NCBI GenBank assembly: GCA_964630525.1
Contig: CAZVUY010000003.1
Location: 48,699 to 112,698, forward strand
Direction of reading: 5' to 3'
DNA length: 64,000 nucleotides
Source: an uncultured Candidatus Saccharibacteria bacterium
Lineage (GTDB): Bacteria > Patescibacteriota > Minisyncoccia > Phycocordibacterales > WO2-35-19
This document shows, piece after piece, positions 15,903 to 64,000 of the stretch; the first letter of the stretch is position 1; each line of letters begins with the position of its first letter. A program made the translations under genes and the position numbers. Under the pieces are notes generated by a model that did no database searches, was not told the origin of the DNA, and saw only the letters and a list, made by a program, of their open reading frames with translations.

Positions 15903-15976
15903 TGCCGGGTCGTCTAATGGTAGGACATCAGGTTTTGGTCCTGAGTATCGGGGTTCGAGTCCCTGCCCGGCAGCCA
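15903..15976 (+). tRNA. tRNA-Gln (UUG), CCA encoded
   Basis: U1-A72 acceptor pair, anticodon loop UUUUGGU, T-loop UUCGAGU, terminal CCA. Confidence 0.8.
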
Positions 15977-17596: not shown

Positions 17597-18165
17597 TCAA
17601 ATACACTTTCAACATCAATGAGGAAATTGCTCGGTGGGTTACCGAGGTGTACGTACGCGATAATAAAAATCTAGATTGGTGGGTAGCTTTTACTAATCCT
17701 ATTGCTGGTCCTTGGAAGAAAATAACAGCACTAAACGGAGACGGAGTTCCTGTTGAGATTTACCGATTCGAAAGAGAGGGAGAAAGGCCGGATCTTATTT
17801 TGGTCAATGACACGCATAAGACAATACTAATTATCGAGGCAAAAGATTTTGTTCAGAAATTAGTAGCTGGTGAGCAAATGCGTAAATCTGCCCGTGTTAT
17901 TAAAGAAATTACTTCTATACTTAGAAATTGCGGTAATGAACATTGGGTATCACGTAAGGATTATAAAATTATTCCTTCGTTCTTATGGTATACAGATAAA
18001 CAAGATCTGATTAAGCCAGAGGATGAGTTGGTACGAGTAACTTATAAAACAGTAGCGGATGATGATTCTGAACTATTGAATATAGTGATCACAAAAGGTG
18101 AATCAGGAGATCTAAAGAACAACTTTGTCTACAATTCACAGATCACTGATGATCTAACTGTTTAA
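17593..18165 (+). CDS. PD-(D/E)xK nuclease-fold protein (candidate restriction endonuclease subunit)
   Basis: RPDLILVND...ILIIEAKD motif. Converges on the methyltransferase genes. Confidence 0.5.
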   Translation: MIKYTFNINEEIARWVTEVYVRDNKNLDWWVAFTNPIAGPWKKITALNGDGVPVEIYRFEREGERPDLILVNDTHKTILIIEAKDFVQKLVAGEQMRKSARVIKEITSILRNCGNEHWVSRKDYKIIPSFLWYTDKQDLIKPEDELVRVTYKTVADDDSELLNIVITKGESGDLKNNFVYNSQITDDLTV

Positions 18166-20030
18166 AATAAAGTGGAAGTTCTGGTAATTCTTTGGAGATA
18201 GGCGTAATTTTTGTCGAATAAGACCGTGTGCTTCAATAGGTTTTTTACTTCTCCCAATGAAGGTGAACCGATATCAAAAGTAGACTCAAGTATAGCTTCA
18301 TAAAGTTCCTTTATACTCTTTTTACCATCTCGCAAAAGATCCACAGCCACATTTGCAACATATTCCTCAATCTTTTTCGCGTTCTCTATTTCTCCAAGAA
18401 ACTCATCTCTAAGTTGGTAATAATCCTTATCACTTGTCGCAATCGGAATAATTACTTCATTTATTTTTCCGAGAGTGAGTGTATTCATACCCTCATTTAG
18501 GATGCATAGGATGATCATCCTATGCACAAGGTTTTTTGGAGCGGTCCCTCCGCGACTCAGTAAAACCTTTTTAGCTATTTCGGTTAGGTGAAAAAGATCC
18601 TGCTTCTTTTTTGGGGGATGCACTTTCTTTTCAAATACACAGTAGTAGTCTCCCACATAGCTTGTGTTTGAAGCCGTCTGTGATTTTGATGATACCACTG
18701 CAGGAATTTGATATTTTGCCTCAGTACAAACGAAAGATTTTTCTGAGAAAGACTCAAGAACGATCTTCCATGCACGGGGATCTAGATTATTGAAAGTCAT
18801 AATAATTTTTCCTCCTTTTTTCAGCTTGCGCTGAAATAGATCCACGATAATTGCTATATCTGCTCCGTACTTATCCCAGGAGCTTACGTATTCTTTTCTG
18901 TCAGAAACGATAATTTCGTCATCGTAGGAAACTCTTTTCTTGAGGAAGCCGTTCCAAATGGCAGAGAATTCTACATACGGAACATTATCTCCGTAAGGTG
19001 GATCAAAGAAAATACCATCGATGCTTTCATCCTCAAATTCCTCTAGCCCATTCTGAGCAGGTTTTAAATCAATTTTGGATGTCGCACCTGTATTTTTGTA
19101 ACTACTTGCGAGAGCCTCAAGTCCTTTAACAAATTTTTTGTATCTAGCCTGTAGGTGAATCACTGGATTTGTTTCAAGGTGTAATGGAGCAATCCAAAAA
19201 CCTGGGATAGTCCATGCAGGCCCGCCTGTACTCAGGTTATTTCTGTAAGGTATAAGTCGTGACGATTGCGCAACGGAAGATGTTAAAAGTAAGAGTGCAG
19301 CATTTCTAATAGAATCTTTTTTTATCTTATGGGCTTTATCGAAGAGTTGGGAAAGTACATAAAATGCTCTAGGGGTGAACAGGTCAGAAAGTTGCATTCC
19401 CGGAAAAGCCAGAATTCTACGATTAATCAATAAATTTTCACTGTCTATCCTGGGAATTTTCTGAATAATAGATTCCTGTTTTTCAATAGCCTTTTTATCT
19501 ATATAAACTTCATTATCACGAGTGATAATTTTTACGATCCTAGTGCCTGTAAACTTTTCAAAATTAAAATACAGTCTTTCGTCACATTTCGCGCAGTGGT
19601 ATTTAGACCCTTTTTTTATTGCATTATCAATTGATCCAATGGTGTTGCAAGAAGGACACTCTGATTCCATGCGATGCACTAAGTACCGGACGTCCTTTCC
19701 ATCGAGGGTATAGAGTTCCTTAAAAGAATCCGCAAACGAAATCAGGTTCTCAATTTCGTGATTAAATTCCTCCACAGTAGGGGGATTAACTGTGACTTCA
19801 GAAAGTAGTTGAGCTAACGGATTTATGTCGAAACCCCTAGAATTAATCCCCAGCTTTTTTGCCTCAGCCAAGAAAACTCCACTTCCACAAAAAGGATCTA
19901 CTACTAAATCACCAGGCTTAAAATGTGACCTTATATATCCATGTAGAATATTTGAAGGCTTTCGTGCCCAGTACTTATGAATTAGGTATTCATTGGGATG
20001 GGTCTCAGCCATCAGTGCTCTTGAGCTCAT
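18162..20030 (-). CDS. DNA methyltransferase (N6-adenine/N4-cytosine type)
   Basis: Motif I VVDPFCGSG and motif IV IFFDPPYG with a long intervening region. Confidence 0.75.
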   Translation of the reverse strand: MSSRALMAETHPNEYLIHKYWARKPSNILHGYIRSHFKPGDLVVDPFCGSGVFLAEAKKLGINSRGFDINPLAQLLSEVTVNPPTVEEFNHEIENLISFADSFKELYTLDGKDVRYLVHRMESECPSCNTIGSIDNAIKKGSKYHCAKCDERLYFNFEKFTGTRIVKIITRDNEVYIDKKAIEKQESIIQKIPRIDSENLLINRRILAFPGMQLSDLFTPRAFYVLSQLFDKAHKIKKDSIRNAALLLLTSSVAQSSRLIPYRNNLSTGGPAWTIPGFWIAPLHLETNPVIHLQARYKKFVKGLEALASSYKNTGATSKIDLKPAQNGLEEFEDESIDGIFFDPPYGDNVPYVEFSAIWNGFLKKRVSYDDEIIVSDRKEYVSSWDKYGADIAIIVDLFQRKLKKGGKIIMTFNNLDPRAWKIVLESFSEKSFVCTEAKYQIPAVVSSKSQTASNTSYVGDYYCVFEKKVHPPKKKQDLFHLTEIAKKVLLSRGGTAPKNLVHRMIILCILNEGMNTLTLGKINEVIIPIATSDKDYYQLRDEFLGEIENAKKIEEYVANVAVDLLRDGKKSIKELYEAILESTFDIGSPSLGEVKNLLKHTVLFDKNYAYLQRITRTSTLF

Positions 20031-21271
20031 GTTTTCTTAAGAATTACCATTAGGTCACAAAGGTTAATTCCAACGTCTCCACCTTTTCTTCGTTGGCTTG
20101 CAGCCCATGAAGCCTCAGTGAACTTAGGTATTCTGAGAGCTACTTTTTCCACATTATATACATCTTTCAATCTGTGGATTAGATTATGTGTGACAGGTAT
20201 ATATTGACCTTTGATAACAGTGTCGCCAATCATTAAGACAACTCTACCATCAGACTCTAAGTAGCCGTTTAGGTTTCGAAGCCCGTTCTCCATATCATTA
20301 AGATATTCCTCAACTTTTTCTGGCTTTCCAACTTTAAATGCTTCTCTAATTTCACCTTTTCGAATAGATGCATGATCTATATCAAGCCAGGCCAGTTCAA
20401 GTGAATTAACTCCACTGTATTTATATGAATTAAAGTAAGGTGGATGACAGATAATTAATTTAGCAACCTGGTCCTTGCTATTTGGCGTATCAAATATAGA
20501 TCGAACTTCAATATTAATAACCGACTTCCTGGTTTTGGGTAGTTCAGGGGCTGACTCCGCAATTTCTAATGCTTTTTTAAGAAAGAAAGGGAAGGCATCC
20601 TTTTCAGCCGTCTCCACATCTAGAAAAAGTCTCCCTTGTTGTGTTGTCGCCCGCGAAACCCTACGGACGATACCCAAGAAAGCAACCATTAAAGCGTCTT
20701 TAATTTCAGAAGAGTAACTCAGATTCTTAACCCCTGTTCGAATCTTTTCAAGAGAAATAATTGTTTCTGGTAGAAACCAATGATCGGGGTTTCTTAGTCC
20801 CGTTAAAACAGGTTTTTTTATCCTTTTTGAATTTGTATAAAAATCTCTTACTTCATTGAGAGCTTGGAGATAGTCTTCCTTGTCAATCTTTGTAGTTTTA
20901 ACTCGTGATATCAGTACAGACAGAGGGTTGATATCGAAGCAAGAAGCCTGTCTCTTTAATAAGAGGGCTTCTAGTGCTGTGGTTCCACTACCACACATGG
21001 GATCAATAACCAAATCATTTTCCTTCGTGTATTCTTTAATTGCATGTCTTGCAATAGGAGGGGGGAATTTACCAAAATATCTGAAAATGCCATGAGATAA
21101 ATAAGACAGTGTTTTGTTTGAGGCACTAGAAGTCCAAACCTCGATATCTTTTGAAAGTTCCTTGATTCTGCTCCTATTTATTAAATCAGCATACTTTTCC
21201 TGAATTTCGTGGCTTGAAAAATCAACAATTTCAAGTTCTGGGATATTATCTTTTACGTTATAGATAGACAT
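20027..21271 (-). CDS. DNA methyltransferase (N6/N4 type), second copy
   Basis: VIDPMCGSGTT motif I and ICHPPYF motif IV. Its stop overlaps the start of the other methyltransferase gene. Confidence 0.7.
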   Translation of the reverse strand: MSIYNVKDNIPELEIVDFSSHEIQEKYADLINRSRIKELSKDIEVWTSSASNKTLSYLSHGIFRYFGKFPPPIARHAIKEYTKENDLVIDPMCGSGTTALEALLLKRQASCFDINPLSVLISRVKTTKIDKEDYLQALNEVRDFYTNSKRIKKPVLTGLRNPDHWFLPETIISLEKIRTGVKNLSYSSEIKDALMVAFLGIVRRVSRATTQQGRLFLDVETAEKDAFPFFLKKALEIAESAPELPKTRKSVINIEVRSIFDTPNSKDQVAKLIICHPPYFNSYKYSGVNSLELAWLDIDHASIRKGEIREAFKVGKPEKVEEYLNDMENGLRNLNGYLESDGRVVLMIGDTVIKGQYIPVTHNLIHRLKDVYNVEKVALRIPKFTEASWAASQRRKGGDVGINLCDLMVILKKT

Positions 21272-21321
21272 CAGCAATGTATATAGAATATGTTTGCAAT
21301 GTAATTATATCAGTAAAGTCT

Positions 21322-22638
21322 TTAATTTAACGATACCCGCTTGTTGATAAGTGTAATTTTCCCCCTTAAACAGCCGAGCAATTCTCTTTTTTCAAAATCT
21401 TTCCCTTCTCTAAGAATATATTTAGCATAATTACGAATATCTATTTCAGGTATATCAGGCCTTTCCCTGTTACCTAGTAGTACCCTTTGAAATTTTTTAT
21501 ACCTCTCCACTTCTTCTTTTATCTTCTTATTTATGCCGAGTTCGTCTATCTCGATCTGATCAATTAATTTCTCAAACTGAGTGATTAGATCATTCTCGTT
21601 GATATAGTTACCCTTACAATCCACCCCTTTACTCCTTGAACATCCGTAGTAGACATGTCTGTTCACGCTTCCACTCTTTAGCTTCTTAAATTTCTCCTCT
21701 GCTGTTATTCCGGAGCTGCATAGCCCACAAACCATCAACTTGGTAAAAGCAAACTCCTTATTTGAACCTCTAACGTAATCTATTCGCATATTTTCTTGCA
21801 CCATATCAAACAATTCTTTCGTTATGATAGGTTCGTGCTTGCCCTTATACCAATTACCGCTTTTTGTTGGAAACTCAAATGTGCCGTAATAGAAGTGATT
21901 GCATAATATCCGATGAACATTTCCTATGCTTAGGTTTTTATTTCCATTGGCTGTCCTAAAATTAAGATCAAATTTAAGCCAATTATAAATTTTCCTTGTT
22001 GACCACTTTTCGTAGGCTGCTTTTTCAAACATTTTCTTAATAATTGGCGCTCTCTCTGGATCTATCATCACATATCCCTTTCTATCGATTCTCTTTTCCG
22101 TAAGGTAGCCAGTCGGTGCAACAGATGGCCACAATCCCATTTCTACTCTAGCTCTCAACCCTCGTTTTACGTTTATGCTTTTATTATCGTTTTCAAGTTT
22201 TGCCTGAGAACATAGAATCATTAGTAGAAATTTTTCGCTCGGAGTGTTCGTAAAGGTTTGGCCGTAGGTTCTAATTTGTGTCAGTTTTTTCTCATCCATT
22301 AAATCAACAATTGATCCCAGATCTCCGGCGTTTCTAGACAATCTATCTGGATGCCAAACTAGTATTCCGTTGAATCTATCTCTCCTTAGATCCTCAAGAA
22401 TCTCTTTAAATACTGGCCGTTGCCCTGAATCCTTGGCAGAATGGGCTTCTCGTCGTATGTCTACAATCTCAAGGCTTTCTCGCTCAGCTATAGCGAGCAT
22501 TTCTTTAACCTGAGACTCAATTGATAAGGCCTGCTTTTCATCTTGTTCTGTTGATTTACGAGCATATAAGCAATACCTAACTTTTATTACTGGTATTGGT
22601 AATGGATTGCCGATTAGGGCAGTTGCTTGCGTTTCCAT
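21322..22638 (-). CDS. Large serine recombinase (integrase/transposase type)
   Basis: N-terminal YARKSTEQDEKQALSIESQ serine catalytic domain, a recombinase domain and a C-terminal Cys-rich zinc ribbon. ATG at 22638. Confidence 0.8.
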   Translation of the reverse strand: METQATALIGNPLPIPVIKVRYCLYARKSTEQDEKQALSIESQVKEMLAIAERESLEIVDIRREAHSAKDSGQRPVFKEILEDLRRDRFNGILVWHPDRLSRNAGDLGSIVDLMDEKKLTQIRTYGQTFTNTPSEKFLLMILCSQAKLENDNKSINVKRGLRARVEMGLWPSVAPTGYLTEKRIDRKGYVMIDPERAPIIKKMFEKAAYEKWSTRKIYNWLKFDLNFRTANGNKNLSIGNVHRILCNHFYYGTFEFPTKSGNWYKGKHEPIITKELFDMVQENMRIDYVRGSNKEFAFTKLMVCGLCSSGITAEEKFKKLKSGSVNRHVYYGCSRSKGVDCKGNYINENDLITQFEKLIDQIEIDELGINKKIKEEVERYKKFQRVLLGNRERPDIPEIDIRNYAKYILREGKDFEKRELLGCLRGKITLINKRVSLN

Positions 22639-22968
22639 GTATATATTGATGACAGACCCCAAAACCCTGCATAGCTATGCAGAACTAAGAAAACGTCGCA
22701 TACTCGCGTTTAGGGCTTAGCAAAAGCTCTGTAGTGCGATAGATTCAAATGGATAGCCGTAAGTGCTATCATGTAAATACAACTGAATATTGGCCCGTAA
22801 AGGGCAGGACCTAAACCCGAAAGGGCATGGTCCCAAATTCGCAAGCAACATAGAGAACCCGTCATTAGGGCGTTGCTTGCGTTACTAGGGGAAACCCTAG
22901 TAGAGGAGTCCGCGAGGCCCTTCCTAGTGGCGGGCTTTCTGTTTCTATTAAAAACGCAAGCAACAAAC

Positions 22969-23847
22969 ATGATTAAGAAAATATTACTGGGGCTAATTGG
23001 AGGCTTTGTCCTACTCGTATGGATCGGATCAATGCTTCCAGATGTCCCAAGGGAGGAAGTAAGCCAAGATAAAGTTTCTGTCTCATCTGATGTTCAAGAA
23101 GCAACTGCTCCTCAAATATCAATACAAGAAACTAGTTCAGTTACGAATCAATCTCCTACTACTGAAACCGCAACCAAGTCAGTCCAAACGACTCAATCAA
23201 GTCCCACTACAGCCCCGCAATACACATATTATTCAGTAACTGATGTGGTAGACGGAGATACGGTCAAAGTGAATATAAATGGAACTGTAACAACTCTTCG
23301 ATTGATTGGAATGGATACGCCAGAGACTGTTGATCCCAGAAAACCAGTTCAATGCTTTGGTAAAGAAGCATCTAACAAAGCAAAAGAATTACTTTCAGGA
23401 AAGAAAGTAAGACTTGAGATGGATCCAAGCCAAGGAACTCTCGATACTTATGGCAGAACTCTTGCTTATATCTACCGAGAAGACGGTTTGTTCTTTAACA
23501 AATACATGATTGAGCAGGGGTATGCCCACGAGTATACCTACCGAACTCCATACAAATACCAGGCTGAATTTAAAACTGCTCAAAAGACAGCTCAAACCAA
23601 TCAGGCGGGACTGTGGTCTCCAAGTACCTGTAACGGAGATACGACCTCCTCTTCCGAAACTGTCCCAGCCACTACTTCATCAGGTGGAAAGTTCTACACC
23701 TCATCACACTACAGTGCGAAATATTACTATCCAGAGGCATGTAATGGTTGGGAAAGTCTAAGTCCAACTTATCTCAAATCATTCGATACCCTAGAAGCTT
23801 TATTGGCTTCTTATCCTTCGAGAACTAAGAGCCCACAGTGTCAGTAG
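22969..23847 (+). CDS. Membrane-anchored thermonuclease (SNase family)
   Basis: N-terminal TM helix, a Ser/Thr-rich linker, then an SNase core LIGMDTPETV...GRTLAYIY. Confidence 0.75.
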   Translation: MIKKILLGLIGGFVLLVWIGSMLPDVPREEVSQDKVSVSSDVQEATAPQISIQETSSVTNQSPTTETATKSVQTTQSSPTTAPQYTYYSVTDVVDGDTVKVNINGTVTTLRLIGMDTPETVDPRKPVQCFGKEASNKAKELLSGKKVRLEMDPSQGTLDTYGRTLAYIYREDGLFFNKYMIEQGYAHEYTYRTPYKYQAEFKTAQKTAQTNQAGLWSPSTCNGDTTSSSETVPATTSSGGKFYTSSHYSAKYYYPEACNGWESLSPTYLKSFDTLEALLASYPSRTKSPQCQ

Positions 23848-24247
23848 TCTGGTTACTTTCTGTCTTGCCCCTGCTTGAGGTCGGCTCATTTTTACCATGT
23901 CTAATGATCACCTCAAAACCTTCCGATCTTTTTACTCCCATTAATTCAGCAATCAACCCTTTCGGTCTTGGTCGTACGTAGTTTTTATGATGATTATCAA
24001 GCCAATACTTCACAGCCCACTTTTCACCCCTTTGCATAGCCAAAAATAATTTACTATGTGCCAAATCATTTCCTGTTTCTTCTCCTAACTGCATGGCCTT
24101 ATCCATTTCTTTTCTGAACGCAGGATCTTTTTCTCGCCATTGGTAAACTGTGTTTCTTGCGATTCCAAGATTCTTGCAGACAACCGAGACATTCGGAAGT
24201 AGGCATAATTCCTCCAGAAGCTTTTTAGATTTTCGGTACTTCTTCAT
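23825..24247 (-). CDS. HTH protein, phage terminase small-subunit-like
   Basis: N-terminal HTH LLEELCLLPNVSVVCKNLGIARNTVYQW. Sits next to a ParB-MTase gene, as in phage packaging regions. Confidence 0.4.
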   Translation of the reverse strand: MKKYRKSKKLLEELCLLPNVSVVCKNLGIARNTVYQWREKDPAFRKEMDKAMQLGEETGNDLAHSKLFLAMQRGEKWAVKYWLDNHHKNYVRPRPKGLIAELMGVKRSEGFEVIIRHGKNEPTSSRGKTESNQTTDTVGS

Positions 24248-25508
24248 CTCTTAATACTTCAGCAGTTAACCCGGTGAGTTTTTCCCAACGCTTAACAATG
24301 AGATCGCAAAATATTGGCTCGAGCTCAATCCCATAGACTCTACGCTTTAATTGTTCTCCTGCGATTAGGGTACTACCAGAACCTAGGAAGCTATCCAAAA
24401 TCACGTCTCCAGGCCTTGTGCAGCGTAGGATGGCCTTCTCATGGAGCTTCGGTGGCTTTGAGGTAGCATGTTCGTAATCTTTGCCTGCCAATCTCTTAAC
24501 AGCCCAGATATCTCCAATCTGATCTAACATCTCGTTTCCTGTACTAATTTCTTTATTTAAAACCTCGTTAAGATCTTGCTTATCAGTTGAGAGATACGGA
24601 GAGCCTTTAGTGCCATAGGTACAAGGTTCGTAACACTTGTTGAATGCAACTGTAGGAGTGGGGTTGTGGCCATTCTTTACCCACAAGCACACTCGCTTAT
24701 TGTTAATTCCAAGTTCGGCGTAAAGAGTCTGCATGAGCCAAATGTATCGCTGATCCGACCAGTAAAAAATGTGGAAATCTTTCTTGGCTACGGAAAGAGC
24801 GTTTACCATAGAACTTCTAATTAGATTTCTGTACGCCTCTTCAGTGCGATTGTCCTCGACTTTACCACCGTAACCTCTTTTACCGCCGATACCTTTGTCA
24901 TAACTTACGTTCAGGTTATAGATAGGGTCCGAATAGATCATGGACGTCTTCTCATCCTCGAATAGTTTATGGACCACTTTTGGGTCAGTAGAGTCGCCAC
25001 AAATAATCTTGTGCTTACCCAGAGTGATAACATCTCCGAGTTTAGTCTTAGGTTCCCTAATCTTCTTGACCTCTTTTTCTACATCGAAGTCGTCGTCTTC
25101 AACTTCTGCATCCTTAGCCCAGATGTTATCTAACTCAATTTGGTCAAAACCGATATCCACCAGTAGATCCACATCAAAGTCCTTGAGTTTCTCGAAATCC
25201 CAGTCTCCAATCACGGCGTTACTCGTGAGCATATATCTTTTGTATTCATCTTCCGTTAGTTTACGATTTGGTACTCTCACTTCAATTTCTTCCTTACCTC
25301 TGCCAAGAATTTGGAGGGCTCTGATTCTTTGATGTCCGGCGCAGATCTTGCCATCTAGGTCTATTGCTGGAATTTCTACTAGATTAAACTTCTTTAAACT
25401 TTTCTTAAGATCTTCCATTGTCTTGTCCGACATAACCCTTGGGTTCTTAGGGGAGGGTAAGAGGGCGTCGACTGTACGTTTTTCCGTATGCCATATAAGT
25501 TTTTTCAT
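24225..25508 (-). CDS. ParB-like nuclease domain / DNA methyltransferase fusion
   Basis: ParB motif LVEIPAIDLDGKICAGHQRIRAL. Methyltransferase motifs SDPIYN and ILDSFLGSGST. ATG at 25508. Confidence 0.75.
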   Translation of the reverse strand: MKKLIWHTEKRTVDALLPSPKNPRVMSDKTMEDLKKSLKKFNLVEIPAIDLDGKICAGHQRIRALQILGRGKEEIEVRVPNRKLTEDEYKRYMLTSNAVIGDWDFEKLKDFDVDLLVDIGFDQIELDNIWAKDAEVEDDDFDVEKEVKKIREPKTKLGDVITLGKHKIICGDSTDPKVVHKLFEDEKTSMIYSDPIYNLNVSYDKGIGGKRGYGGKVEDNRTEEAYRNLIRSSMVNALSVAKKDFHIFYWSDQRYIWLMQTLYAELGINNKRVCLWVKNGHNPTPTVAFNKCYEPCTYGTKGSPYLSTDKQDLNEVLNKEISTGNEMLDQIGDIWAVKRLAGKDYEHATSKPPKLHEKAILRCTRPGDVILDSFLGSGSTLIAGEQLKRRVYGIELEPIFCDLIVKRWEKLTGLTAEVLRDEEVPKI

Positions 25509-25658
25509 ATTGTTGGTGATTAGCTTTGTAACCACTTCTAGACCTTACGCAAAACGGGCCCACAACGCCGATCCCGTAGGATCTGCTTTGTGGGCCCGTA
25601 GGCTCCGAATCTATGTAAGTGTGCTTAAAGTTTATATCCACCCGTAAAGGGTGTCAAG

Positions 25659-43627: not shown

Positions 43628-44407
43628 ATGGGCTTTATATTATTCGACATAGGAGGAACCAAAATAAGGATGGCATATTCAGACGATGGCGAGAGTTTTG
43701 AAGAACCGAGAGTGATTGAGACACCCAAAAATTATGAAGAAGGTAAAAAAATTTTTGTAGAGCTTGCAAAAGATTTGACCAAAGGTAGGGAGGCAAAAAA
43801 ATTTGTAGGTGGTATGAGTAGGAGCGTTGCTGGCTGGGGTTATGGTTGGTTTAAGTCAGATTTGGAGAACCTGGTACAGGCAGAAATCTATCTTGAAAAC
43901 GATGCCGCCATGGTTGGGCTTGGTGAAGCGGTTTATGGCGCTGGCAGAGGTTTTGATATTGTGGCATATGTTACAGTTTCTACCGGAGTGGGCGGTGCGC
44001 GGATTGTTGGTGGTAAAATCGACGAGAAGGCAGTGGGCTTTGAGCCAGGTAAGCAGATAATCGATATCGATGCGGGTGACAGACTTGAAGATTTGATATC
44101 TGGCAAGGCTCTAGAAGAAAAGACCGGTAAGTCTCCAAAGGAAATAACTGATCCGAAAGTGTGGAATGAGCATGCCTACTTCCTCGCGGTGGGACTCAAC
44201 AATGTTATCGTTGGCTGGTCGCCAAACGTGGTGGTGCTAGGTGGCTCCATGATAACCGGCGATCCAGCTATTCCTCTCGACAAAACCGAAGAATATCTTA
44301 AAGGTTTGTTGAAAATTTTCCCAGAATTGCCGGCGATCAAAAAAGCAAAGCTTGGCGACTTTGGCGGGCTCTGGGGCGCACTGACATACCTAAAAGCTAA
44401 AAATTAA
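43628..44407 (+). CDS. ROK-family sugar kinase (glucokinase-like)
   Basis: DIGGTKIR N-terminus and a Gly-rich ROK core. Adjacent to pgi. Confidence 0.7.
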   Translation: MGFILFDIGGTKIRMAYSDDGESFEEPRVIETPKNYEEGKKIFVELAKDLTKGREAKKFVGGMSRSVAGWGYGWFKSDLENLVQAEIYLENDAAMVGLGEAVYGAGRGFDIVAYVTVSTGVGGARIVGGKIDEKAVGFEPGKQIIDIDAGDRLEDLISGKALEEKTGKSPKEITDPKVWNEHAYFLAVGLNNVIVGWSPNVVVLGGSMITGDPAIPLDKTEEYLKGLLKIFPELPAIKKAKLGDFGGLWGALTYLKAKN

Positions 44408-44433
44408 AAGCATAAAGTTAAAAGTTTATAAAC

Positions 44434-52340: not shown

Positions 52341-52377
52341 CAACAAAAAACCGCTTTGAATCAGCGGTTTTTTGTTG
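52341..52377 (+). terminator. Rho-independent terminator
   Basis: AAAACCGCT-TTGAATC-AGCGGTTTT plus TTTTGTTG. The outer 15-bp arms also pair. Confidence 0.6.
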
Positions 52378-52389
52378 TATATTTTGGTT

Positions 52390-54768
52390 ATGGATAATTA
52401 TAATCACCAAGAAATAGAAAAGAAGTGGCAAGAGAAGTGGAAGGCAGAAAAAATGTACGAAGCCAAAGATGATACTTCTAGAGATAAGAATTTTTATCTT
52501 CTTTTTGAATTCCCGTATCCATCGGGCAATCTGCATATAGGTCATTGGTACGCTTTTGCGATGCCTGATATTTTTGCTCGAATGAAGCGAATGCAGGACT
52601 TCAATATTCTTTTTCCGATTGGTTTCGATGCATTTGGTTTGCCGGCAGAGAACGCGGCGATCAAGCATGGCCTTGATCCTAAAAAGTGGACTTACGAAAA
52701 TATAGCCTACATGGAGCAGCAGCTCTCGAGTATGGGCGGCTCTTTTGATTGGTCGCGCAAGGTGGTGACTGCAGATCCAGAGTATTACAGGTGGACTCAG
52801 TGGTTGTTTTTGAAATTTTTCAAAAAAGGTTTGGCTTATAAGAGGCGGGCCAATGTTAACTGGTGTCCCAAAGATCAGACCGTGCTTGCCAATGAACAGG
52901 TGATAGCGGGCAAATGTGAAAGGTGCGGGACTGAGGTGGTGCAGAAAGATTTGGAGCAATGGTTTTTCAAAATTACGGATTATGCCGATCGCTTAGTTGA
53001 CGATCTGGCAAATCTAAATTGGCCTGAGCCCATCAAGGACGCACAGAGAAATTGGATAGGGAAGTCAGAAGGATCGGAAATAAGCTTTGAGCTTAAAGCT
53101 AAAAGCTTAGAGTCCGAACAGCTCCAAGCTCCAAGCTCCAAGCTCTCAGCTATTAATATATTCACCACCAGGGCAGACACTCTTTTGGGTGCTACTTACC
53201 TTGTTTTGGCGCCGGAGCATCCAGCAATTAAAAATCTAGCATCTAGCATCCAGAATCTAGCAGAAGTGGAAAAATATATTGAAGCAGTAAAGAAAAAAAC
53301 GGAAATAGAAAGGACTGATGCTAAAAAAGAAAAAACTGGTGTGGAGTTGAAGGGGGTAAAGGCTATCAATCCAGCGACTGGGGAAGAAATACCGGTTTGG
53401 GTGGCTGACTATGTACTTGGTGGCTATGGGACTGGGGCGGTAATGGCTGTACCAGCTCATGATGAGCGCGATTTTGATTTTGCTCAAAAATACAATTTGC
53501 CGATCAAGGAAATTACTCCTGATTGGGGTTTGTTGGAGCAGTTTGGCAAAAAAGTCACTAAATATAAATTGCGAGATTGGTTGTTGAGCCGCCAGCGCTA
53601 TTGGGGAGTGCCAATCCCGATCGTTTATGATCCGCAGGGTCAGCCGCAGCCAGTCCCTGAAGAGTATTTGCCTTGGCTTTTGCCGGAAGACAATATCGAC
53701 TTTACTCCTAGAGGTGCTTCACCACTCGCTTCATCTGCCGAACTAAAAGAAAGGGTGGTAAAAATTTTTGGTGAAGGCTGGACTCCAGAGTACGACACAA
53801 TGGATACTTTTGTTGATTCCTCTTGGTATTTTCTGAGGTACACCGATCCCAAGAATAGTCAGGAGTTTGCTTCTCAGGAGAAAATGAATGCTTGGTTGCC
53901 AGTCGACAAATATTCTGGCGGAGCCGAACATACGACGATGCATCTTTTGTATTCGCGCTTTTTCCACAAAGCTCTTTTCGATATGGGTTTGGTCAAAGAT
54001 TCAGAACCATATTTAAACCGAATGAATCGGGGTTTGATCCTCGGTCCCGATGGTCAAAAGATGAGCAAATCAAAAGGTAATGTGATTGATCCTGATGAAC
54101 AAGTGACTCGAGTTGGGGCTGACACGGTCCGCATGTACCTAGCCTTTATTGGGCCCTACAACGAGACCGGCCAATATCCGTGGGACCTAGGCGGGGTCGC
54201 TGGTGTTAGAAGATTTTTGGAAAGAGTGTGGAGAGTAAGCTTAGAGCTTAAAGCTAAAAGCTCAGAGGAAGAAAAGCTCTCAGCTCCAAGCTCTCAGCTC
54301 TCAACTCTTTTGCATAAAACTATAAAAAAAGTTACTGAAGATATCGAAGCTTTCAAATTCAACACCGCCATTTCGGCACTCATGATATTGCTGAATGAGT
54401 TGGAGAAACAGGTCACTAATAACCAGCCACAATTAACCAAACAAACATTCGAAGTATTTTTGAAGTTGTTGGCCCCGTTTGCACCACACATAACTGAAGA
54501 GATCTGGCATAATTTTGGGTATCAAAATTCTATTCATCTCGAAAAGTGGCCAGAATACGATGAAGCTGAAATCGTCGAGGATAAAGTGACAATATCAGTA
54601 CAGATCAATGGCAAAATCAGGGCTAAGTTTGAGGCCAGCTCTGATATTTCGGAGCAAGAGGCCAAAGATAGAGCGCTTATGATGCCGGAGGTGACCAAAT
54701 GGCTAGGGAGTGGGGAAGTTAAAAAGACAGTCTTTGTACCTAAAAAGATCATTAGTTTTGTGGTATAA
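52390..54768 (+). CDS. leuS: Leucyl-tRNA synthetase
   Basis: HIGH motif (PYPSGNLHIGHWY) and KMSKS present. The track ORF starts at TTG 52372; ATG at 52390. Confidence 0.9.
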   Translation: MDNYNHQEIEKKWQEKWKAEKMYEAKDDTSRDKNFYLLFEFPYPSGNLHIGHWYAFAMPDIFARMKRMQDFNILFPIGFDAFGLPAENAAIKHGLDPKKWTYENIAYMEQQLSSMGGSFDWSRKVVTADPEYYRWTQWLFLKFFKKGLAYKRRANVNWCPKDQTVLANEQVIAGKCERCGTEVVQKDLEQWFFKITDYADRLVDDLANLNWPEPIKDAQRNWIGKSEGSEISFELKAKSLESEQLQAPSSKLSAINIFTTRADTLLGATYLVLAPEHPAIKNLASSIQNLAEVEKYIEAVKKKTEIERTDAKKEKTGVELKGVKAINPATGEEIPVWVADYVLGGYGTGAVMAVPAHDERDFDFAQKYNLPIKEITPDWGLLEQFGKKVTKYKLRDWLLSRQRYWGVPIPIVYDPQGQPQPVPEEYLPWLLPEDNIDFTPRGASPLASSAELKERVVKIFGEGWTPEYDTMDTFVDSSWYFLRYTDPKNSQEFASQEKMNAWLPVDKYSGGAEHTTMHLLYSRFFHKALFDMGLVKDSEPYLNRMNRGLILGPDGQKMSKSKGNVIDPDEQVTRVGADTVRMYLAFIGPYNETGQYPWDLGGVAGVRRFLERVWRVSLELKAKSSEEEKLSAPSSQLSTLLHKTIKKVTEDIEAFKFNTAISALMILLNELEKQVTNNQPQLTKQTFEVFLKLLAPFAPHITEEIWHNFGYQNSIHLEKWPEYDEAEIVEDKVTISVQINGKIRAKFEASSDISEQEAKDRALMMPEVTKWLGSGEVKKTVFVPKKIISFVV
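53083..53152 (+). repeat. In-frame repeat element, copy 1, inside leuS
   Basis: AAGCTTTGAGCTTAAAGCTAAAAGCTTAGAG followed by (AGCTCCA)x3-AGCTCTCAGCT. Translated as ELKAKSLE...APSSKLSA. Confidence 0.6.
54236..54305 (+). repeat. In-frame repeat element, copy 2, inside leuS
   Basis: AAGCTTAGAGCTTAAAGCTAAAAGCTCAGAG is 29/31 identical to copy 1 and is followed by AGCTCTCAGCTCCAAGCTCTCAGCTCTC. Translated as ELKAKSSEEEKLSAPSSQLS. Confidence 0.6.
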
Positions 54769-57168: not shown

Positions 57169-58271
57169 TAAAAATTTCAAATTTCAAAACTCAAATCTCA
57201 AAATTGTGGAGAAGATTTTTAGCCGAGACAGAAAGCCTGCGGGTGATTGTCGGCACCAATCCAAAAGTTATACTTTGGCGACTCCATATTTTCGGTTACT
57301 CCCCATTTCTTTCAAGGCATATTTTCAAAATCGCAGCTACTGGTCTGGTACTTTTCTCATTCTTTTTTAGTTTCTATATTTTTTGTTGGCGTTCACCACG
57401 ACCATTCCCTGAAAATGCATTAGTTACTGTTGAACGAGGTGAGCCTCTTTCTCAAATAGTGAACGATTTTGCTAGCAAAGGGGTGGTTCGTTCGTCATTT
57501 TGGCTTAGGGTTTTTATCACTATTTCAGGTGGACAAAATAGGGTGATTGCCGGAGATTATTATTTCCCAAAAGCAAAAAATGTTTTTAGTGTTGCTAAGG
57601 TGTTGCATCAGGGTAAATTTGGGCTTATCCCTTTTCGAGTCACTATCCCGGAAGGTCTTTCCTCAATGGAAATTGCTGACATCTTAGATGAACAGTTACC
57701 CGCTTTTAATTCAAGTGATTTTATAAGCGAGGTTGATAGCGGTGATTTTGAAGGTTACTTATTCCCCGATACTTACTTTTTTATGCCCAATACCAAGGCG
57801 GGCGATGTCATCTTGACCATGCGCGAGAATTTTGCGCGACAGGTGAGTACTTATGAAGCTGATATTGCAAAGTTTGAAAAGCCGCTGCATGAGGTGGTGA
57901 TCATGGCTTCTATCATTGAAGATGAGGCTAACAAGTCACTTGCCGATAAAAGGATTATTTCCGGTATTCTTTGGAAGCGGATCAGGATGGAAATGCCAAT
58001 GCAGGTGGATGCTCCTTTCAAATATTACAACGGCAAGCACAGCTACACTTTGACCAACGAAGATTTAAAAGAAGATCATCCTTACAATACTTATATAAAC
58101 AAAGGTTTGCCGCCGACGGCGATCAGCAACCCGGGGATTGATTCTATTCGCGCCGCTATCACCCCGACCCCGACTAATTACCTTTACTTCATGTCTGACA
58201 AGTCAGGTAACCTTTACTACGCTTCCGACTTTGAGGGGCATCAGGTGAATAGGGAGCGGTATTTGAGGTAG
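57165..58271 (+). CDS. mltG: Endolytic murein transglycosylase MltG (YceG-like)
   Basis: N-terminal TM helix and a YceG-like domain with GLPPTAISNPG. Confidence 0.75.
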   Translation: MIKISNFKTQISKLWRRFLAETESLRVIVGTNPKVILWRLHIFGYSPFLSRHIFKIAATGLVLFSFFFSFYIFCWRSPRPFPENALVTVERGEPLSQIVNDFASKGVVRSSFWLRVFITISGGQNRVIAGDYYFPKAKNVFSVAKVLHQGKFGLIPFRVTIPEGLSSMEIADILDEQLPAFNSSDFISEVDSGDFEGYLFPDTYFFMPNTKAGDVILTMRENFARQVSTYEADIAKFEKPLHEVVIMASIIEDEANKSLADKRIISGILWKRIRMEMPMQVDAPFKYYNGKHSYTLTNEDLKEDHPYNTYINKGLPPTAISNPGIDSIRAAITPTPTNYLYFMSDKSGNLYYASDFEGHQVNRERYLR

Positions 58272-58299: not shown

Positions 58300-58350
58300 T
58301 GAAAAAATAGAAAGCGAGCCGTCCTCCGAGTACGGCTCGCTCTGGTTTAT
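58300..58350. terminator. Bidirectional terminator hairpin
   Basis: Perfect 10-bp stem AGCGAGCCGT...ACGGCTCGCT with T-runs on both strands. Confidence 0.5.
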
Positions 58351-58727
58351 TGGCCTGCCGGTAATCTCTCCAGAGCTTTTTCGAACACGGCTTTGTAGAC
58401 CTCCATTGGTTTTGCCTGCCCCACCCCTTTCGCGAGGAAAAACATTGGGTTGGGGTCGGAATCTGTGGACAAACAGCAAAAGATTCTGGTTGCCCAAGAC
58501 CCCGATTGACAAATAAAACGCACAAGAAATTGAACCGAGAAAATATTATGTCCTGACTGCTGGTACCTTTCTATTTCAAGTCGAACTATTGAATCTTTTG
58601 GCAACGAAACACCTTGATTTATAACCTCACACTGTAACATCAAGGATGTAACGGTTTGGGCTGTTACGATGTGGTTGAAGTCAGGATTGTTGAATTCAAC
58701 ATTTTTTATTTCAAACTGGAAATTCAT
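58347..58727 (-). CDS. Hypothetical protein (126 aa)
   Basis: ATG at 58727 has an AAAGGAG RBS. The terminator lies directly downstream. Confidence 0.45.
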   Translation of the reverse strand: MNFQFEIKNVEFNNPDFNHIVTAQTVTSLMLQCEVINQGVSLPKDSIVRLEIERYQQSGHNIFSVQFLVRFICQSGSWATRIFCCLSTDSDPNPMFFLAKGVGQAKPMEVYKAVFEKALERLPAGQ

Positions 58728-58776
58728 CCAAAGCTCCTTTCTTGCGAACTTTCCGAAAATAAACTAACATACTGTT

Positions 58777-60027
58777 ATGAAAAGTCAACCAAGTAGTGAA
58801 AAATTCCATAGCCCTAAAAAAGCAGGCAAGGCCCAATCGAATTTTCTACTACAAGATCAAGCGAAAAAAGGAAGGGTGTTTGTCGGACTCTCCGGTGGGG
58901 TGGACTCGGCGGTGAGTGCGGCGCTCTTAAAAAAAGAAGGTTACGAGGTGACCGGAGTTTTTATAAAGGCCTGGGACCCAGCCTCGACGTCAAACCACAG
59001 GCATATAAAATATCCGTGCACATGGAAAGAAGACAGGCGGAGCGCTATGCGAGCGGCAGCTGTTTTGGACATACCATTTTTAACTTTGGATTTGGAAAAA
59101 GAATACAAACAGGAAGTGGTGGACTACATGATAAAAGAATACAAAGAGGGTAAAACTCCAAACCCGGATGTTATGTGCAACAAAGAAATAAAATTTGGCC
59201 ATTTTTTGAAGTTCGCTTTAAAAAATGGAGCAGATTTTGTGGCGACCGGGCATTATGCTCAAAAGCTAAAAGCTAAAAGCTTAGAGCTTAAAGTAAAAAT
59301 TTCCAATTCCAAACCTCTTAGCTCCAAGCTTTTAGCTCCAAGCTATATCTTGAGTGAAGCGAAAGATAAAAACAAAGATCAATCATATTTCCTCTGGACT
59401 CTTACTCAAGAGCAGCTTGCTCGTACGCTCTTTCCGGTCGGTCATCTTGAGAAAGAAGGGGTGAGGAAGTTGGCGGTGAAATTTGGTTTGCCGCAGGCCA
59501 CTCGGAAAGACAGCCAGGGTCTGTGCTTCCTTGGCAAGATCGATATAAAAGAATTTTTGAAAGATTATTTACAATCAGCAAAAGGCGAGGTGATTAATGA
59601 AAAAGGTGAAGTGGTGGGCGAACATGATAGTGCTGTATTTTATACGATTGGGGAGAGGCATGGTTTTAGGGTTACCCAAAAGAGGGACAACGAAGTGCCG
59701 CTGTATGTGGTGGCTAAAGATATAGTTAAAAATACCATCACTGTTGCACCCAGGTTGAATACTGGAGAAAAGAAAGAGAGAGTTAGACAAAAGATTGCCT
59801 TGTCAGATGTAAACTGGAATCAAGGCAAAGAGCCTGATTTGAAAAAGTTTTATACCGCCAGAGTGAGATATCGGGGTGAAAAAATAAAATGCCAAATTAA
59901 GATTGAGGAAGGTGGGGTGGTCGTGAGCCTAGCCAAATACCAACAAGGAGTATCTCTCGGTCAATCACTCGTTTTGTATCAGGGTGAAATTTGTATTGGT
60001 GGCGGCGTGATGTCTGAAATATTGTAA
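58777..60027 (+). CDS. mnmA: tRNA-specific 2-thiouridylase MnmA
   Basis: VGLSGGVDSAVSA PP-loop and DQSYFLW. About 30 aa N-terminal extension. Confidence 0.85.
   Translation: MKSQPSSEKFHSPKKAGKAQSNFLLQDQAKKGRVFVGLSGGVDSAVSAALLKKEGYEVTGVFIKAWDPASTSNHRHIKYPCTWKEDRRSAMRAAAVLDIPFLTLDLEKEYKQEVVDYMIKEYKEGKTPNPDVMCNKEIKFGHFLKFALKNGADFVATGHYAQKLKAKSLELKVKISNSKPLSSKLLAPSYILSEAKDKNKDQSYFLWTLTQEQLARTLFPVGHLEKEGVRKLAVKFGLPQATRKDSQGLCFLGKIDIKEFLKDYLQSAKGEVINEKGEVVGEHDSAVFYTIGERHGFRVTQKRDNEVPLYVVAKDIVKNTITVAPRLNTGEKKERVRQKIALSDVNWNQGKEPDLKKFYTARVRYRGEKIKCQIKIEEGGVVVSLAKYQQGVSLGQSLVLYQGEICIGGGVMSEIL
59262..59345 (+). repeat. In-frame repeat element, copy 3, inside mnmA
   Basis: AAAGCTAAAAGCTAAAAGCTTAGAGCTTAAAG followed by AGCTCCAAGCTTTTAGCTCCAAGCT. 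Translated as KLKAKSLELKVKIS...SSKLLAPS. The insert is about 20 aa longer than the equivalent loop in E. coli MnmA. Confidence 0.55.
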
Positions 60028-62814: not shown

Positions 62815-62826
62815 TAAGGTTTTCCT

Positions 62827-64000
62827 ATGAAATACAAAACGGAGTGGGATTTGGGTCATATCTATAAAGGAGAGGTGAAAAGGCAGGTAGCCAAAGATCT
62901 GGCTACTACTAAAAAAGAGTATTTGGCATTTGCCAAAAAATATCGCCAAAACAAAAAGCATCTTAAAAATCCAAAGGCGCTAGCGGGGGCTATTTTAGAA
63001 TATGAAAAATTAGGAGCCAATCCATCTAGCTCCCGGCCGAGTGCTTACTATTCGTACCGAAAGAGCTTGAATGCGCTGGACAATGAAGCTCAAGCCGAGC
63101 TCGCCAAACTCTCTGATTTTTATTCCAAACTTGGGAATGAAGTGGAATTTTTTATGCTGGAAGTTGGGAAAATATCCAAAAATCTACAACCCAAATTTTT
63201 GAAATCAAAAGAGTTGGCGCCTTTTAAATATTTTTTGACTAAAGTCTTTGAAAATGCCAAACATGATTTGAGTGAAGCGGAAGAAAAAATAATGAATCTA
63301 AAAAGCGCACCCTCTCACCAGATGTGGGTTTCTGGTTTTGCTCGGCTTTTGAATAAGCAAGAAGTGGAACACGAGGGGAGGCCAGTGCCTATCTCTGAAG
63401 CTGGCTCAAAAATTTCTACTTTGCCGACGAAAGCAAGAAGAGAGCTACATCAAAAATTGATGAAGGTTTACGAAAACGTGGCTGATTTTTCGGAAAGCGA
63501 AATAAATGCGATCGTGACCAACAAGAAAATCAGTGATGAATTGCGAGGGTTCAAAACTCCTTATGAAGAAACTGTCAAAGGTTATGAAAATGAACCAAAG
63601 ACGGTGAGGGAACTGACAGAGGCAGTAACCAAAAATTTTGAGATTGCTCACCGTTTTTTCAAGTTGAAAGCCGAAATGCTGGGTGAAAAAAGGCTGACCT
63701 ATGCCGACCGGGCGGCTAAAGTCGGCTCGGCTCAAGTGAAGATTGGCTTTGAAGAAGCAACGGAAAGAGTGATCCGTTCATTCAATGAAGCTGATCCAAG
63801 TTTCGGCGCTTTTGTCAAAGAAATGCTGGAGCGAGGTTTAGTGGACGTTTTTCCCAAGAAGGGCAAAACCAGTGGGGCCTTCTGTTCTTCTTGTACCGGC
63901 CTACCTTCTTATGTGCTCCTAAATCATATTGAAGATTTTAGATCGATCACCACTTTGGCTCACGAGATGGGCCATGCTCTGCACAGCAAATATTCGAAAA
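62827..64000 (+). CDS. pepF: Oligoendopeptidase F / M3-family peptidase, N-terminal part (3' end lies outside the window)
   Basis: Open to the window end. HEMGHALH zinc motif near the end. Confidence 0.75.
   Translation, partial: MKYKTEWDLGHIYKGEVKRQVAKDLATTKKEYLAFAKKYRQNKKHLKNPKALAGAILEYEKLGANPSSSRPSAYYSYRKSLNALDNEAQAELAKLSDFYSKLGNEVEFFMLEVGKISKNLQPKFLKSKELAPFKYFLTKVFENAKHDLSEAEEKIMNLKSAPSHQMWVSGFARLLNKQEVEHEGRPVPISEAGSKISTLPTKARRELHQKLMKVYENVADFSESEINAIVTNKKISDELRGFKTPYEETVKGYENEPKTVRELTEAVTKNFEIAHRFFKLKAEMLGEKRLTYADRAAKVGSAQVKIGFEEATERVIRSFNEADPSFGAFVKEMLERGLVDVFPKKGKTSGAFCSSCTGLPSYVLLNHIEDFRSITTLAHEMGHALHSKYSK

Follow-up and report, generated by a model that had tools for sequence, protein, structure and literature searches.

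The gene mnmA (58777-60027, plus strand) of contig CAZVUY010000003.1, within the 64-kb stretch of that contig analysed here (hereafter the window; GC content 42.7%), contains at positions 59262-59345 an imperfect palindrome of 84 bases. The palindrome lies in frame within the coding sequence and is composed of heptanucleotide units arranged as (AAAGCTW)x4-5, a 21-nt spacer and (AGCTYYW)x4. With moderate confidence we favour the view that this segment is a translated "coding palindrome", i.e. a selfish or neutral element acting at the DNA level. It is best read as an insert that the MnmA enzyme tolerates, and not as a functional part of it. On this best reading it also belongs to a large and heterogeneous population of hairpin and 7-nt inserts of Paceibacteria, members of the candidate phyla radiation (CPR), which build up in a small number of permissive loops within conserved genes (mnmA, leuS, secA and others). 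The evidence is best explained if such inserts are widespread in these bacteria and previously undescribed.

The mnmA palindrome and its copies in leuS

The ORF (open reading frame) listing, Pfam and phmmer identify the host gene as one encoding a tRNA 2-thiouridine synthase of 416 aa, with matches to the N, M and C domains of tRNA_Me_trans and with E values of 1e-76 to 1e-81 in comparison with the solved structures 2hma and 2der. Its best relatives bear names such as Parcubacteria, Zambryskibacteria and Paceibacterota. The peptide between the MnmA motifs ATGHYA and KDQSYFLW is QKLKAKSLELKVKISNSKPLSSKLLAPSYILSEAKDKN, the ORF product around the insert reads ...ATGHYAQKLKAKSLELKVKISNSKPLSSKLLAPSYILSEAKDKNKDQSYFLW, and an example of a predicted junction-spanning peptide is LLAPSYILSEAK. 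At the DNA level the segment consists of AAAGCTAAAAGCTAAAAGCTTAGAGCTTAAAG, the spacer and CTCTTAGCTCCAAGCTTTTAGCTCCAAGCT; this sequence and its translation had already been described in an earlier sequence-only reading of the window, which our re-reading of the DNA and the ORF bore out.

The 5' arm (59262-59293, plus strand; AAAGCTA AAAGCTA AAAGCTT AGAGCTT AAAG), encoding (K)LKAKSLELK, was detected by Tandem Repeats Finder (TRF) with a period of 7 and 5.6 copies, and also as a lag-7 array (59259-59294). It is followed by the spacer, or loop (59294-59314, plus strand; TAAAAATTTCCAATTCCAAAC), encoding VKISNSKP, and by the 3' arm (59315-59345, plus strand; CTCTT AGCTCCA AGCTTTT AGCTCCA AGCT A), encoding LSSKLLAPS, with TRF periods of 14 and 7. 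Both arms are thus tandem arrays of 7-nt units (TRF coordinates 59261-59298 and 59318-59344). Together they form the inverted repeat I3 (arms of 30 nt, 80% complementary, separated by 21 nt) and pair with each other in RNA and DNA folds. The spacer, which holds a short AATTTCC/AATTCCA 7-nt motif resembling the array at 57171-57203, is not conserved in the copies of this AAGCT family found at two other loci (L205 and L206).

The segment folds better than shuffled sequences, with both RNA parameters (z = -5.3 for the plus and -5.1 for the minus strand) and DNA parameters (z = -3.8 and -4.0). The antisense RNA is the more stable of the two (-39 to -43 versus -27 to -28 kcal/mol for the sense RNA), a difference that can be traced to the reading frame. 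A perfect (AAAGCTT)n...(AAGCTTT)n palindrome would carry an in-frame TAA, and in the observed 3' arm C replaces the pairing T (CTC CAA, not CTT TAA). These stop-removing T-to-C changes give A.C mismatches in the sense strand but G.U pairs in the antisense strand. Since stop avoidance explains the asymmetry, no antisense function need be invoked. The exact MnmA protein was found on three independent contigs and orthologous copies occur in independent samples; therefore, the insert is not an assembly artefact.

Two further copies of the element reside in frame in leuS (52372-54768, plus strand; Pfam tRNA-synt_1 and Anticodon_1): copy 1 (53081-53154, plus strand; FELKAKSLESEQLQAPSSKLSAI) between the WIGKSEG and TTRADT motifs, and copy 2 (54236-54309, plus strand; SLELKAKSSEEEKLSAPSSQLSTL) after the RFLERVWR motif. 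The three copies lie on the coding strand in one orientation, with one architecture and one peptide register (ELKAKS...APSS), and have in common a 21-nt super-unit, GAGCTTAAAGCTAAAAGCTTA, read in an identical frame, as well as a 23-nt stretch with a single mismatch. Matches to family sequences in the 64 kb fall without exception inside these three elements: 19 for AGCTNNNAGCT (0.98 expected), 15 for AGCTNNNAGCTNNNAGCT (0.17 expected) and 9 for the 18-mer AAAGCTTAGAGCTTAAAG with at most 3 mismatches (0.14 expected). The shared family, strand, register and match statistics confirm that the mnmA element is a third copy of the leuS repeat, as the sequence-only reading had proposed. The element does not, however, represent a single discrete repeat family; it is part of a much larger set of unrelated hairpins and 7-nt arrays occupying the same loops.

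The leuS copy 2 is also present in three loci syntenic with the window (L002, L003 and L004) and in the metagenome contig L168; another locus, L018, holds other 7-nt arrays at this site. In the metagenomes, in-frame relatives of the AAGCT family appeared to be present only in L168 (leuS), L173 (FtsK) and L093/L160 (DegT-type aminotransferase), in a scan with a loose pattern most of whose 120 matches were generic (AGCTCCA)n arrays of unrelated organisms, many of them intergenic. A query composed of concatenated insert peptides, aimed at the spectrum of host genes, gave no matches. A phage origin was rejected, as the phage collection contained no match to the element. The frequency of AGCT in the window outside the elements (observed/expected 0.90) shows that this tetranucleotide is not avoided, and a link with restriction-modification via the AGCT/AAGCTT cores was rejected on this ground.

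Other arrays and palindromes were observed within the window. An A-rich 7-nt array (44391-44426; TAAAAGC TAAAAAT TAAAAGC ATAAAGT TAAAAGT), 81% similar to the mnmA 5' arm (D9) and without an inverted partner, runs across the stop codon of the ORF 43628-44407 into the adjacent spacer. In leuS, ~80 nt 3' of copy 1, there is an in-frame (ATCTAGC)x4 array (53233-53262; NLASSIQNLA), which is kept in L002-L004 and also has no inverted partner. The array at 57171-57203 (AAATTTC AAATTTC AAAACTC AAATCTC AAAA) encodes residues 3-13 (KISNFKTQISK) of a YceG/MltG-like protein and is present in L002 and L003 but absent from L004. A GC-richer palindrome (TTCTTCTAATCTCCCTAACCCTCTTTA / TAAAGAGGGGACTGGAGGGAACAAGAA) at 691-747 lies in frame in secA, in the part encoding the C-terminal linker immediately ahead of the SEC-C zinc motif; it probably represents a further coding palindrome that belongs to a different class.

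In the phmmer alignment with the solved MnmA of S. pneumoniae (2hma), the loop of the window protein is ~19-20 residues longer, and the extra residues align opposite the turn of the hairpin RVARDEDGTVHMLRG (2hma, 2der). An AlphaFold2 (AF2) model with a mean pLDDT (predicted local distance difference test) of 77.8 contains strands at residues 160-165 and 190-194, with residues 169-185 below 50. Both the alignment and the model thus map the insert to the tip of a beta-hairpin, and it probably forms a disordered stretch of ~20 residues at the turn of this surface hairpin of the catalytic domain.

The length of the segment between TGHY and FLW was determined in 78 Paceibacteria loci from species-representative genomes. 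It amounts to 27-28 residues in 21 loci, 29-33 in 19 and more than 40 in 33 (maximum 82). The minimal segment of 27 residues, found in 20 loci, is 24 residues shorter than that of the window, in line with the ~20 additional residues relative to E. coli-type MnmA that the sequence-only reading had noticed. Since so many relatives (40 of the 78 loci) have only 27-33 residues at this place, the minimal hairpin is functional in many of them.

Replacement of inserts at fixed loops

The window was compared with the three syntenic contigs, whose leuS genes are ~97% (L002, L003) and ~86% (L004) identical to that of the window. The mnmA loop, occupied by the AAGCT palindrome in the window, carries an (AGTAGCC)n...(GGCTACT)n palindrome in both L002 and L004, and a GC-rich hairpin, CCCCCCTCTCCTTGCCAAGGAGAGGGGGG, in L003. 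At leuS site 1 the AAGCT copy is present in the window, L002 and L003, and a GC-rich hairpin occupies the exact site in L004; at leuS site 2 all four carry the AAGCT copy, the L004 loop resembling site 1 of the window. Outside the mnmA loop, the MnmA protein of the window is 97% identical to P0002 and 95% to P0001, each of which has a different insert class. The window and L003 are 100% identical at 59220-59275 and from 59404 onwards, and the unalignable tract is confined to ~59262-59365. This variable cassette (59262-59365, plus strand), delimited by the comparison of near-identical genomes, comprises the palindrome and a 3' tail, ATATCTTGAGTGAAGCGAAA, whose codons specify YILSEAK, the return beta-strand.

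Close relatives therefore differ by replacement of the whole hairpin-coding segment (~59262-59365), and not by clean insertion into an empty site; no comparison revealed an empty site in which a native loop was kept on both sides of an insert. In L002, a tract of ~200 nt directly 5' of the insert is only 75-78% identical to the window amid surroundings of 97-100%, and this contrast identifies it as a recombination footprint. A second species complex presents a similar picture: L205 has an AAGCT palindrome, L207, whose MnmA is 92% identical outside the loop, has an (AAATTNN)x5 array, and L208 has a short loop, with a divergence tract of ~200 nt between L205 and L207.

Variation of this kind was also observed away from the hairpins. 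The interval between yceG/mltG and mnmA (58341-58854), with small minus-strand ORFs of 107-126 aa, is wholly different in the window, L002, L003 and L004, and the flanking genes are 86-99% identical across them; it constitutes a hypervariable gene slot. The gene of an M3 peptidase (window 62826-64000, L003 14057-15234) is 68% identical, versus 93-98% for its neighbours, and this divergence indicates that mosaicism due to recombination extends far outside the hairpin sites in this genome.

A broader sample of ~200 mnmA orthologs of Paceibacteria, in which the TGHY loop spans 27 to 82 residues and its long versions are mostly DNA hairpins or 7-nt arrays unrelated in sequence, demonstrated that the loop is a hot spot. 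Many recurring, mutually unrelated sequences occupy exactly this loop in the 120 closest orthologs, and relatives without the AAGCT repeat have short loops or quite different inserts, never the same loop; the condition that the sequence-only reading had named as refuting it, a loop of like length and sequence in such orthologs, was not observed. As we read the fold table, strong hairpins (DNA fold z of -3 to -11) make up ~24 of the 42 long inserts, and others are non-palindromic 7-nt arrays with units such as AATACNA, CCAACAA, CTAAACG, TCAAATG, AAATTGT and GTCGAAA. Despite the AT-rich sequence and up to 55 extra codons, the loop region is a multiple of three in length in all 82 loci examined (loops of 27-82 aa), and neither a stop codon nor a frameshift was found in it in any of them. 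The mnmA gene has at least two further hot loops, in the vicinity of +880 and +1040 nt. Across Paceibacteria, the TGHY loop, the two other mnmA loops and the leuS loops are occupied by dozens of hairpins and 7-nt arrays that are unrelated to each other.

The same structures are over-represented in Paceibacteria DNA in general. In 1.46 Mb, 63 arrays with a lag of 7 were found, versus at most 10 for any other lag of 4-13; 47 of the 63 lie within ORFs of at least 150 aa, including genes of aminoacyl-tRNA synthetases and tRNA modification. Perfect hairpins of at least 11 bp numbered 216 in ~1.40 Mb, compared with 19 in shuffled sequences.

In two genomes, those of the window and of L018, an element family is common to leuS and mnmA, and the families differ between the genomes. 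L018 contains (CTAAACG)n arrays at 372-404, 7191-7222, 15935-15973 and 16982-17020 (leuS, mnmA and two intergenic places), those in leuS and mnmA being 91% identical over 34 nt. Its leuS gene has three other 7-nt arrays, one of which occupies the site of copy 2 of the window. That one element can be found at different sites is most clearly illustrated by a GC-rich element of ~95 nt with three or four successive hairpins (L063 5300-5400, L035 10905-11005, L066 10855-10950, L020 10880-10940; peptide ...PLLVEEGVGGGNSKKHHP..GTPPHQGGE). In some genomes it sits in the TGHY loop, in others in a C-terminal loop of mnmA, with 85-92% identity. In L042 (2502-2606 and 2990-3090; also in L020, L053 and L062) one mnmA gene carries two copies of an element with an identical 45-nt GC-rich core, CCCGCCTTCGCCCTCGGAGACATAGGACAGGGGACCCACGG, flanked by differing but perfectly self-complementary AT-rich stems of ~20 bp. 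In this sister family with AT-rich stems, 8 of 21 outer-stem pairs are compensatory across genomes. A conserved 11-bp perfect inverted repeat, TTTTTTGAAAT...ATTTCAAAAAA, was also observed in alaS (L056 6345-6392, L071 15426-15473, L084 16226-16273, L041, L043); it arises from the AlaRS motif FFEM...GDYFKK and calls for caution, since protein motifs may give rise to some of the coding hairpins as a by-product.

The inserts and their host genes appear to have different histories. In 12 pairs of loci sharing an insert class, identity at third codon positions is 55-94% in the insert (~72% being typical) versus 36-68% (~45%) in the rest of the gene. Within the inserts, identity is 80% at paired and 70% at unpaired positions. 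The inserts are not more alike in amino acids than in nucleotides, and their third codon positions show the same degree of conservation as the other two, which points to constraint at the level of DNA and not of the peptide. Between the window and L205, every third position of FVATGHYA differs, yet the 5' arm matches over an unbroken run of 27 nt, and the non-repeat tail TGAGTGAAGCG is conserved though the flanking third codon positions are saturated. Judging from these sequence comparisons, the inserts would be either younger than their host genes or more constrained. MnmA identity is the same within as between the six insert classes, nearest neighbours usually carry another class, and junctions are invariant within a class. 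Vertical inheritance of the insert classes was rejected, since all six are interspersed with one another when placed on the similarity structure of MnmA.

Possible origin and spread of the inserts

Taking the coding-palindrome interpretation as a basis, the following scheme may be proposed. Arrays of 7-nt units would grow by replication slippage, and the complementarity of the arms may be kept through template switching within the strand or conversion of one arm by the other. In-frame stops would be cleared via T-to-C transitions in the 3' arm, under selection on the essential gene. Short-patch recombination or gene conversion via the strongly conserved flanking codons could carry a cassette of ~100 nt (the hairpin plus the codons of the return strand) from one allele or lineage to another, and sometimes to another locus, without a dedicated transposase, and breaks provoked by the hairpin may render the site prone to recombination. 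The spread of the element we infer only indirectly, the candidates being short-patch recombination or conversion, a structure-specific enzyme, and repeated local birth.

Several observations weigh against this interpretation. The same classes occur at identical junctions in lineages that are ~35% divergent; one-step recombination of the RecA type across such a distance is unlikely, and site-specific insertion would fit the identical junctions better. Third positions of the window and L205 are saturated up to the junction, so that no co-transferred flank is visible, and neither an intermediate, nor an empty site, nor a donor was identified for the spread. The higher identity of unpaired positions in the inserts may be inflated by the alignment of short A-rich sequences. 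The AAGCT family itself, represented by three sequences in the covariation analysis, shows no double compensatory change. Moreover, translation of the insert is deduced from statistics on frame and stops. The principal difficulty lies in the junctions, which are identical in distant lineages whose flanks are saturated at third positions.

These junctions are the reason to keep in play a bolder, and at present tentative, proposal, to which we assign a clearly lower probability than to the coding-palindrome interpretation. Paceibacteria may carry an undescribed kind of protein-free mobile DNA, in the form of hairpin or heptamer cassettes of ~60-150 nt that arrive recurrently at the same beta-turn codons of MnmA, LeuRS, SecA and other proteins. 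Such cassettes would be younger than their host genes, cross between distant lineages with identical junctions and replace each other at the strain level. Their behaviour would be homing-like without a homing endonuclease, perhaps via hairpin-provoked breaks and repair from taken-up DNA, or via a structure-specific enzyme that also sets the 7-nt period.

It is less likely that the inserts are classical non-autonomous transposable elements, similar to MITEs (miniature inverted-repeat transposable elements) or Rickettsia palindromic elements (RPEs), mobilised in trans by a transposase encoded elsewhere that prefers hairpin-turn codons or hairpin DNA. The dispersal of copies within one genome would suit such elements. 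The same is true of the GC-rich multi-hairpin elements found, at 85-92% identity, at different mnmA loops of different genomes, and of the patchy distribution, which does not follow phylogeny and in which the members of a class have identical junctions. The apparent youth of the inserts and the lack of visible flank co-transfer also agree with transposition, and insertion sequences targeting palindromic units are known (PMC1525189). However, the four-genome alignment revealed no target-site duplication (the junctions GCTCA/AAAGCT and ...GCGAAA/GATAAAAAC lack a direct repeat), and no terminal inverted repeats were found beyond the palindrome itself. The genes of the 64-kb window, the syntenic loci and the neighbours include no transposase; the only recombinase, a large serine recombinase, belongs to a methylase island of its own (~18-26 kb). 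Furthermore, the dozens of unrelated units have only the 7-nt period in common, a point in favour of a generative process and against a single family of elements. In close relatives the hairpin-coding segment is replaced as a whole, and the divergent tracts beside it are of the kind typically left by homologous recombination. The sequence-only reading had concluded that the element inserts into unrelated essential genes while preserving the reading frame. The frame is indeed kept in leuS and mnmA, but selection acting on an essential gene accounts for this most simply, and it need not be a property of the element; insertion in the sense of transposition is not demonstrated, given that duplications, terminal repeats and a transposase are all missing from these loci.

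The methylase island just mentioned (18162-25535) is probably an integrated element. It contains the serine recombinase gene (21322-22662, minus strand), adjoined by a LOOT RNA (Rfam RF03000, 22808-22923), three genes of N6/N4 DNA methylases and an SNase homolog.

More doubtful still is a local origin, in which the arrays arise by slippage from a native seed and become palindromic through template switching, the likeness to leuS and to other lineages being due to convergence on an AGCT-core heptamer. Heptamer arrays of many different units exist in these genomes, and (AGCTCCA)n and (AAAAGCT)n arrays, some as inverted pairs, occur in very different organisms with GC contents of 30-70%, including a Pseudanabaena plasmid. 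The array begins within native-like codons (GCT CAA AAG CT), the sequence ATA AGC TTT (I-S-F) at leuS site 1 contains AAGCTT, and the excess of heptamers in bacterial simple-sequence repeats has been attributed to polymerase slippage (PMC4692102). Convergence would have to account, however, for the super-unit common to the three window copies in one frame and for their 23-nt stretch with a single mismatch. It would also have to account for two independent cases of families that are common to leuS and mnmA within a genome and differ between genomes, and for the identical junctions and conserved non-repeat tail of L205. Close relatives, moreover, differ by wholesale replacement and not in the number of units.

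An adaptive role of the insert is improbable. The lysine-rich amphipathic peptide KLKAKSLELKVK... might aid the binding of tRNA or partners by MnmA and LeuRS, both of which bind tRNA, or a hairpin in the mRNA or antisense RNA might regulate expression (e.g. by translation pausing or antisense termination). The stems have been kept over long divergence, all known AAGCT-class copies share one orientation relative to the gene, and the antisense RNA, with its U-rich 3' arm, folds much better than the sense RNA. On the other side, many orthologs, including those of close relatives, either lack the insert or have an unrelated sequence in its place, AF2 confidence is low for the insert, and amino-acid identity does not exceed nucleotide identity, with third positions conserved like the rest. 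The idea of a structured antisense RNA was rejected: the better-folding strand varies by class (it is the plus strand for the AGTAGCC class), the stop-removing changes account for the A.C versus G.U asymmetry, and neither Rfam families nor terminator calls were obtained at the inserts.

Finally, an intervening sequence missing from the mature protein (a small intron, ribosome bypass or a mini-intein) hardly deserves consideration, although the segment forms a strong stem-loop and insertions in rRNA genes are known from CPR bacteria (PMC11270868): the conservation of frame and the freedom from stops in 82 of 82 loci make removal by splicing or bypass very unlikely, the 3' arm bears exactly those transitions that avoid in-frame TAA/TAG, and the segment matches no Rfam intron family, lacks intein motifs and is far too short for an intein.

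Comparison with known repetitive elements

Repetitive extragenic palindromic sequences (REPs) are associated with genes of REP-associated tyrosine transposases (RAYTs), and MITEs are recognised by their terminal inverted repeats, by target-site duplications and by a parent insertion sequence (IS); none of these features was seen in the 64-kb window or the syntenic loci. The inserts resemble REPs, bacterial interspersed mosaic elements (BIMEs) and MITEs in being small, dispersed palindromic repeats of bacteria without coding capacity (PMC3733652, PMC10969869). REPs are described as extragenic, with a GTAG or CGTC head (PMC3733652). All three copies in the window are intragenic and have no such head, and no Y1_Tnp-type Pfam match was found among the window genes examined.

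With PARCEL (palindromic amphipathic repeat coding elements) the element shares coding dyad symmetry, amphipathic repeats and a patchy distribution suggestive of horizontal spread and shuffling within the genome. PARCEL, however, form whole ORFs of tandem 25-residue domains, often in membrane proteins, whereas the window element is a single insert of ~28 residues in a housekeeping enzyme, and MnmA domains alone, without a PARCEL-type domain, are recorded by Pfam for the window protein.

Stable inverted repeats in translated essential genes, gained and lost between species, are also present in the mitochondria of Nematomorpha, for which template switching or conversion was proposed to keep the arms of coding palindromes identical (PMC6649704). 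Those repeats are perfect, up to 284 bp long, and their arms encode conserved protein; the window palindrome, in contrast, is extra loop sequence, imperfect, made of 7-nt units and bacterial.

Among heptanucleotide repeats, cyanobacterial short tandemly repeated repetitive (STRR) sequences, GGGNATC in Xanthomonas and Nostoc, and TAACTGA in Beggiatoaceae have been reported (PMC4692102 and PMC4679880). The Paceibacteria arrays are similar to them in the over-representation of a 7-nt unit, the multitude of unit sequences, the occurrence of some inverted stem-loop pairs and the variation in length and sequence between close relatives. They differ in that the known repeats are intergenic, whereas 47 of the 63 Paceibacteria arrays lie inside ORFs, in frame, in CPR genomes of ~1 Mb. 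Plasmid pPg_01 of Pseudanabaena galeata (L210, 46045-46260) carries an inverted (AGCTTTT)n...(AAAAGCT)x14 array between cas6 and a gene of a four-helix-bundle protein; its record matches the 5' arm of the window element in 14 places, and the heptamer unit is identical. Arrays of (AGCTCCA)n and other AGCT-core heptamers were also seen in metagenome loci L085-L204 (e.g. L181 404-468, L144, L150, L094, L112, L191), in many environments and at GC contents of 30-70%. Some are perfect palindromes with arms of ~45 nt, often just upstream of dxs, hemA or gmd. The literature searched contained no description of such metagenomic AGCT-core arrays. Nor did it mention palindromes in coding sequences of CPR bacteria or heptamer arrays within their genes, and nothing specific came to light on the sequence of the element itself.

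If the coding-palindrome interpretation is correct, the inserts would provide a natural map of permissive loops in essential enzymes. They would also affect annotation and marker-gene phylogenetics of the CPR, in which loops that are not homologous at the DNA level are aligned as homologous. Swaps at the strain level could serve as sensitive markers of recombination in CPR populations, and the inserts as a whole could become a tractable system for asking why heptanucleotide repeats are over-represented in bacteria, and how hairpins arise, persist and move without a transposase.

In its behaviour the window element comes closest to the RPEs, translated selfish palindromes residing in frame in conserved and often essential genes of Rickettsia (PMC6649704, summarising Ogata et al. 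2000 Science, 2002 Genome Res; Claverie and Ogata 2003). Like them, the Paceibacteria inserts are short palindromes placed in frame in conserved or essential genes of a bacterium with a reduced genome, at sites tolerated by the protein, with several families per clade. The defining trait of an in-frame, predictably translated palindrome is displayed by the three stop-free copies in leuS and mnmA, with fold z values of ~-4 to -5. RPEs are ~100-150 bp long and have family-specific consensus sequences without 7-nt periodicity. The window element, of 84 bp and built of 7-nt units in a Parcubacteria/Paceibacteria host, is set apart from them by host, length and unit composition. To our knowledge, orthologous RPE sites are stable between species; in Paceibacteria, one loop hosts many unrelated classes, and genomes that are at least 95% identical differ by cassette replacement. 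RPE copies are reported to lose their repeat identity over time (PMC6649704), whereas the stems of the Paceibacteria inserts, whose arms are heptamer arrays, stay complementary over deep divergence. Coding palindromes are rare, and the RPEs have stood almost alone among bacteria since 2000. An abundant version in the CPR would broaden the phenomenon, and it would be mechanistically different, being characterised by 7-nt arrays, maintained stems and turnover of cassettes at fixed loops.

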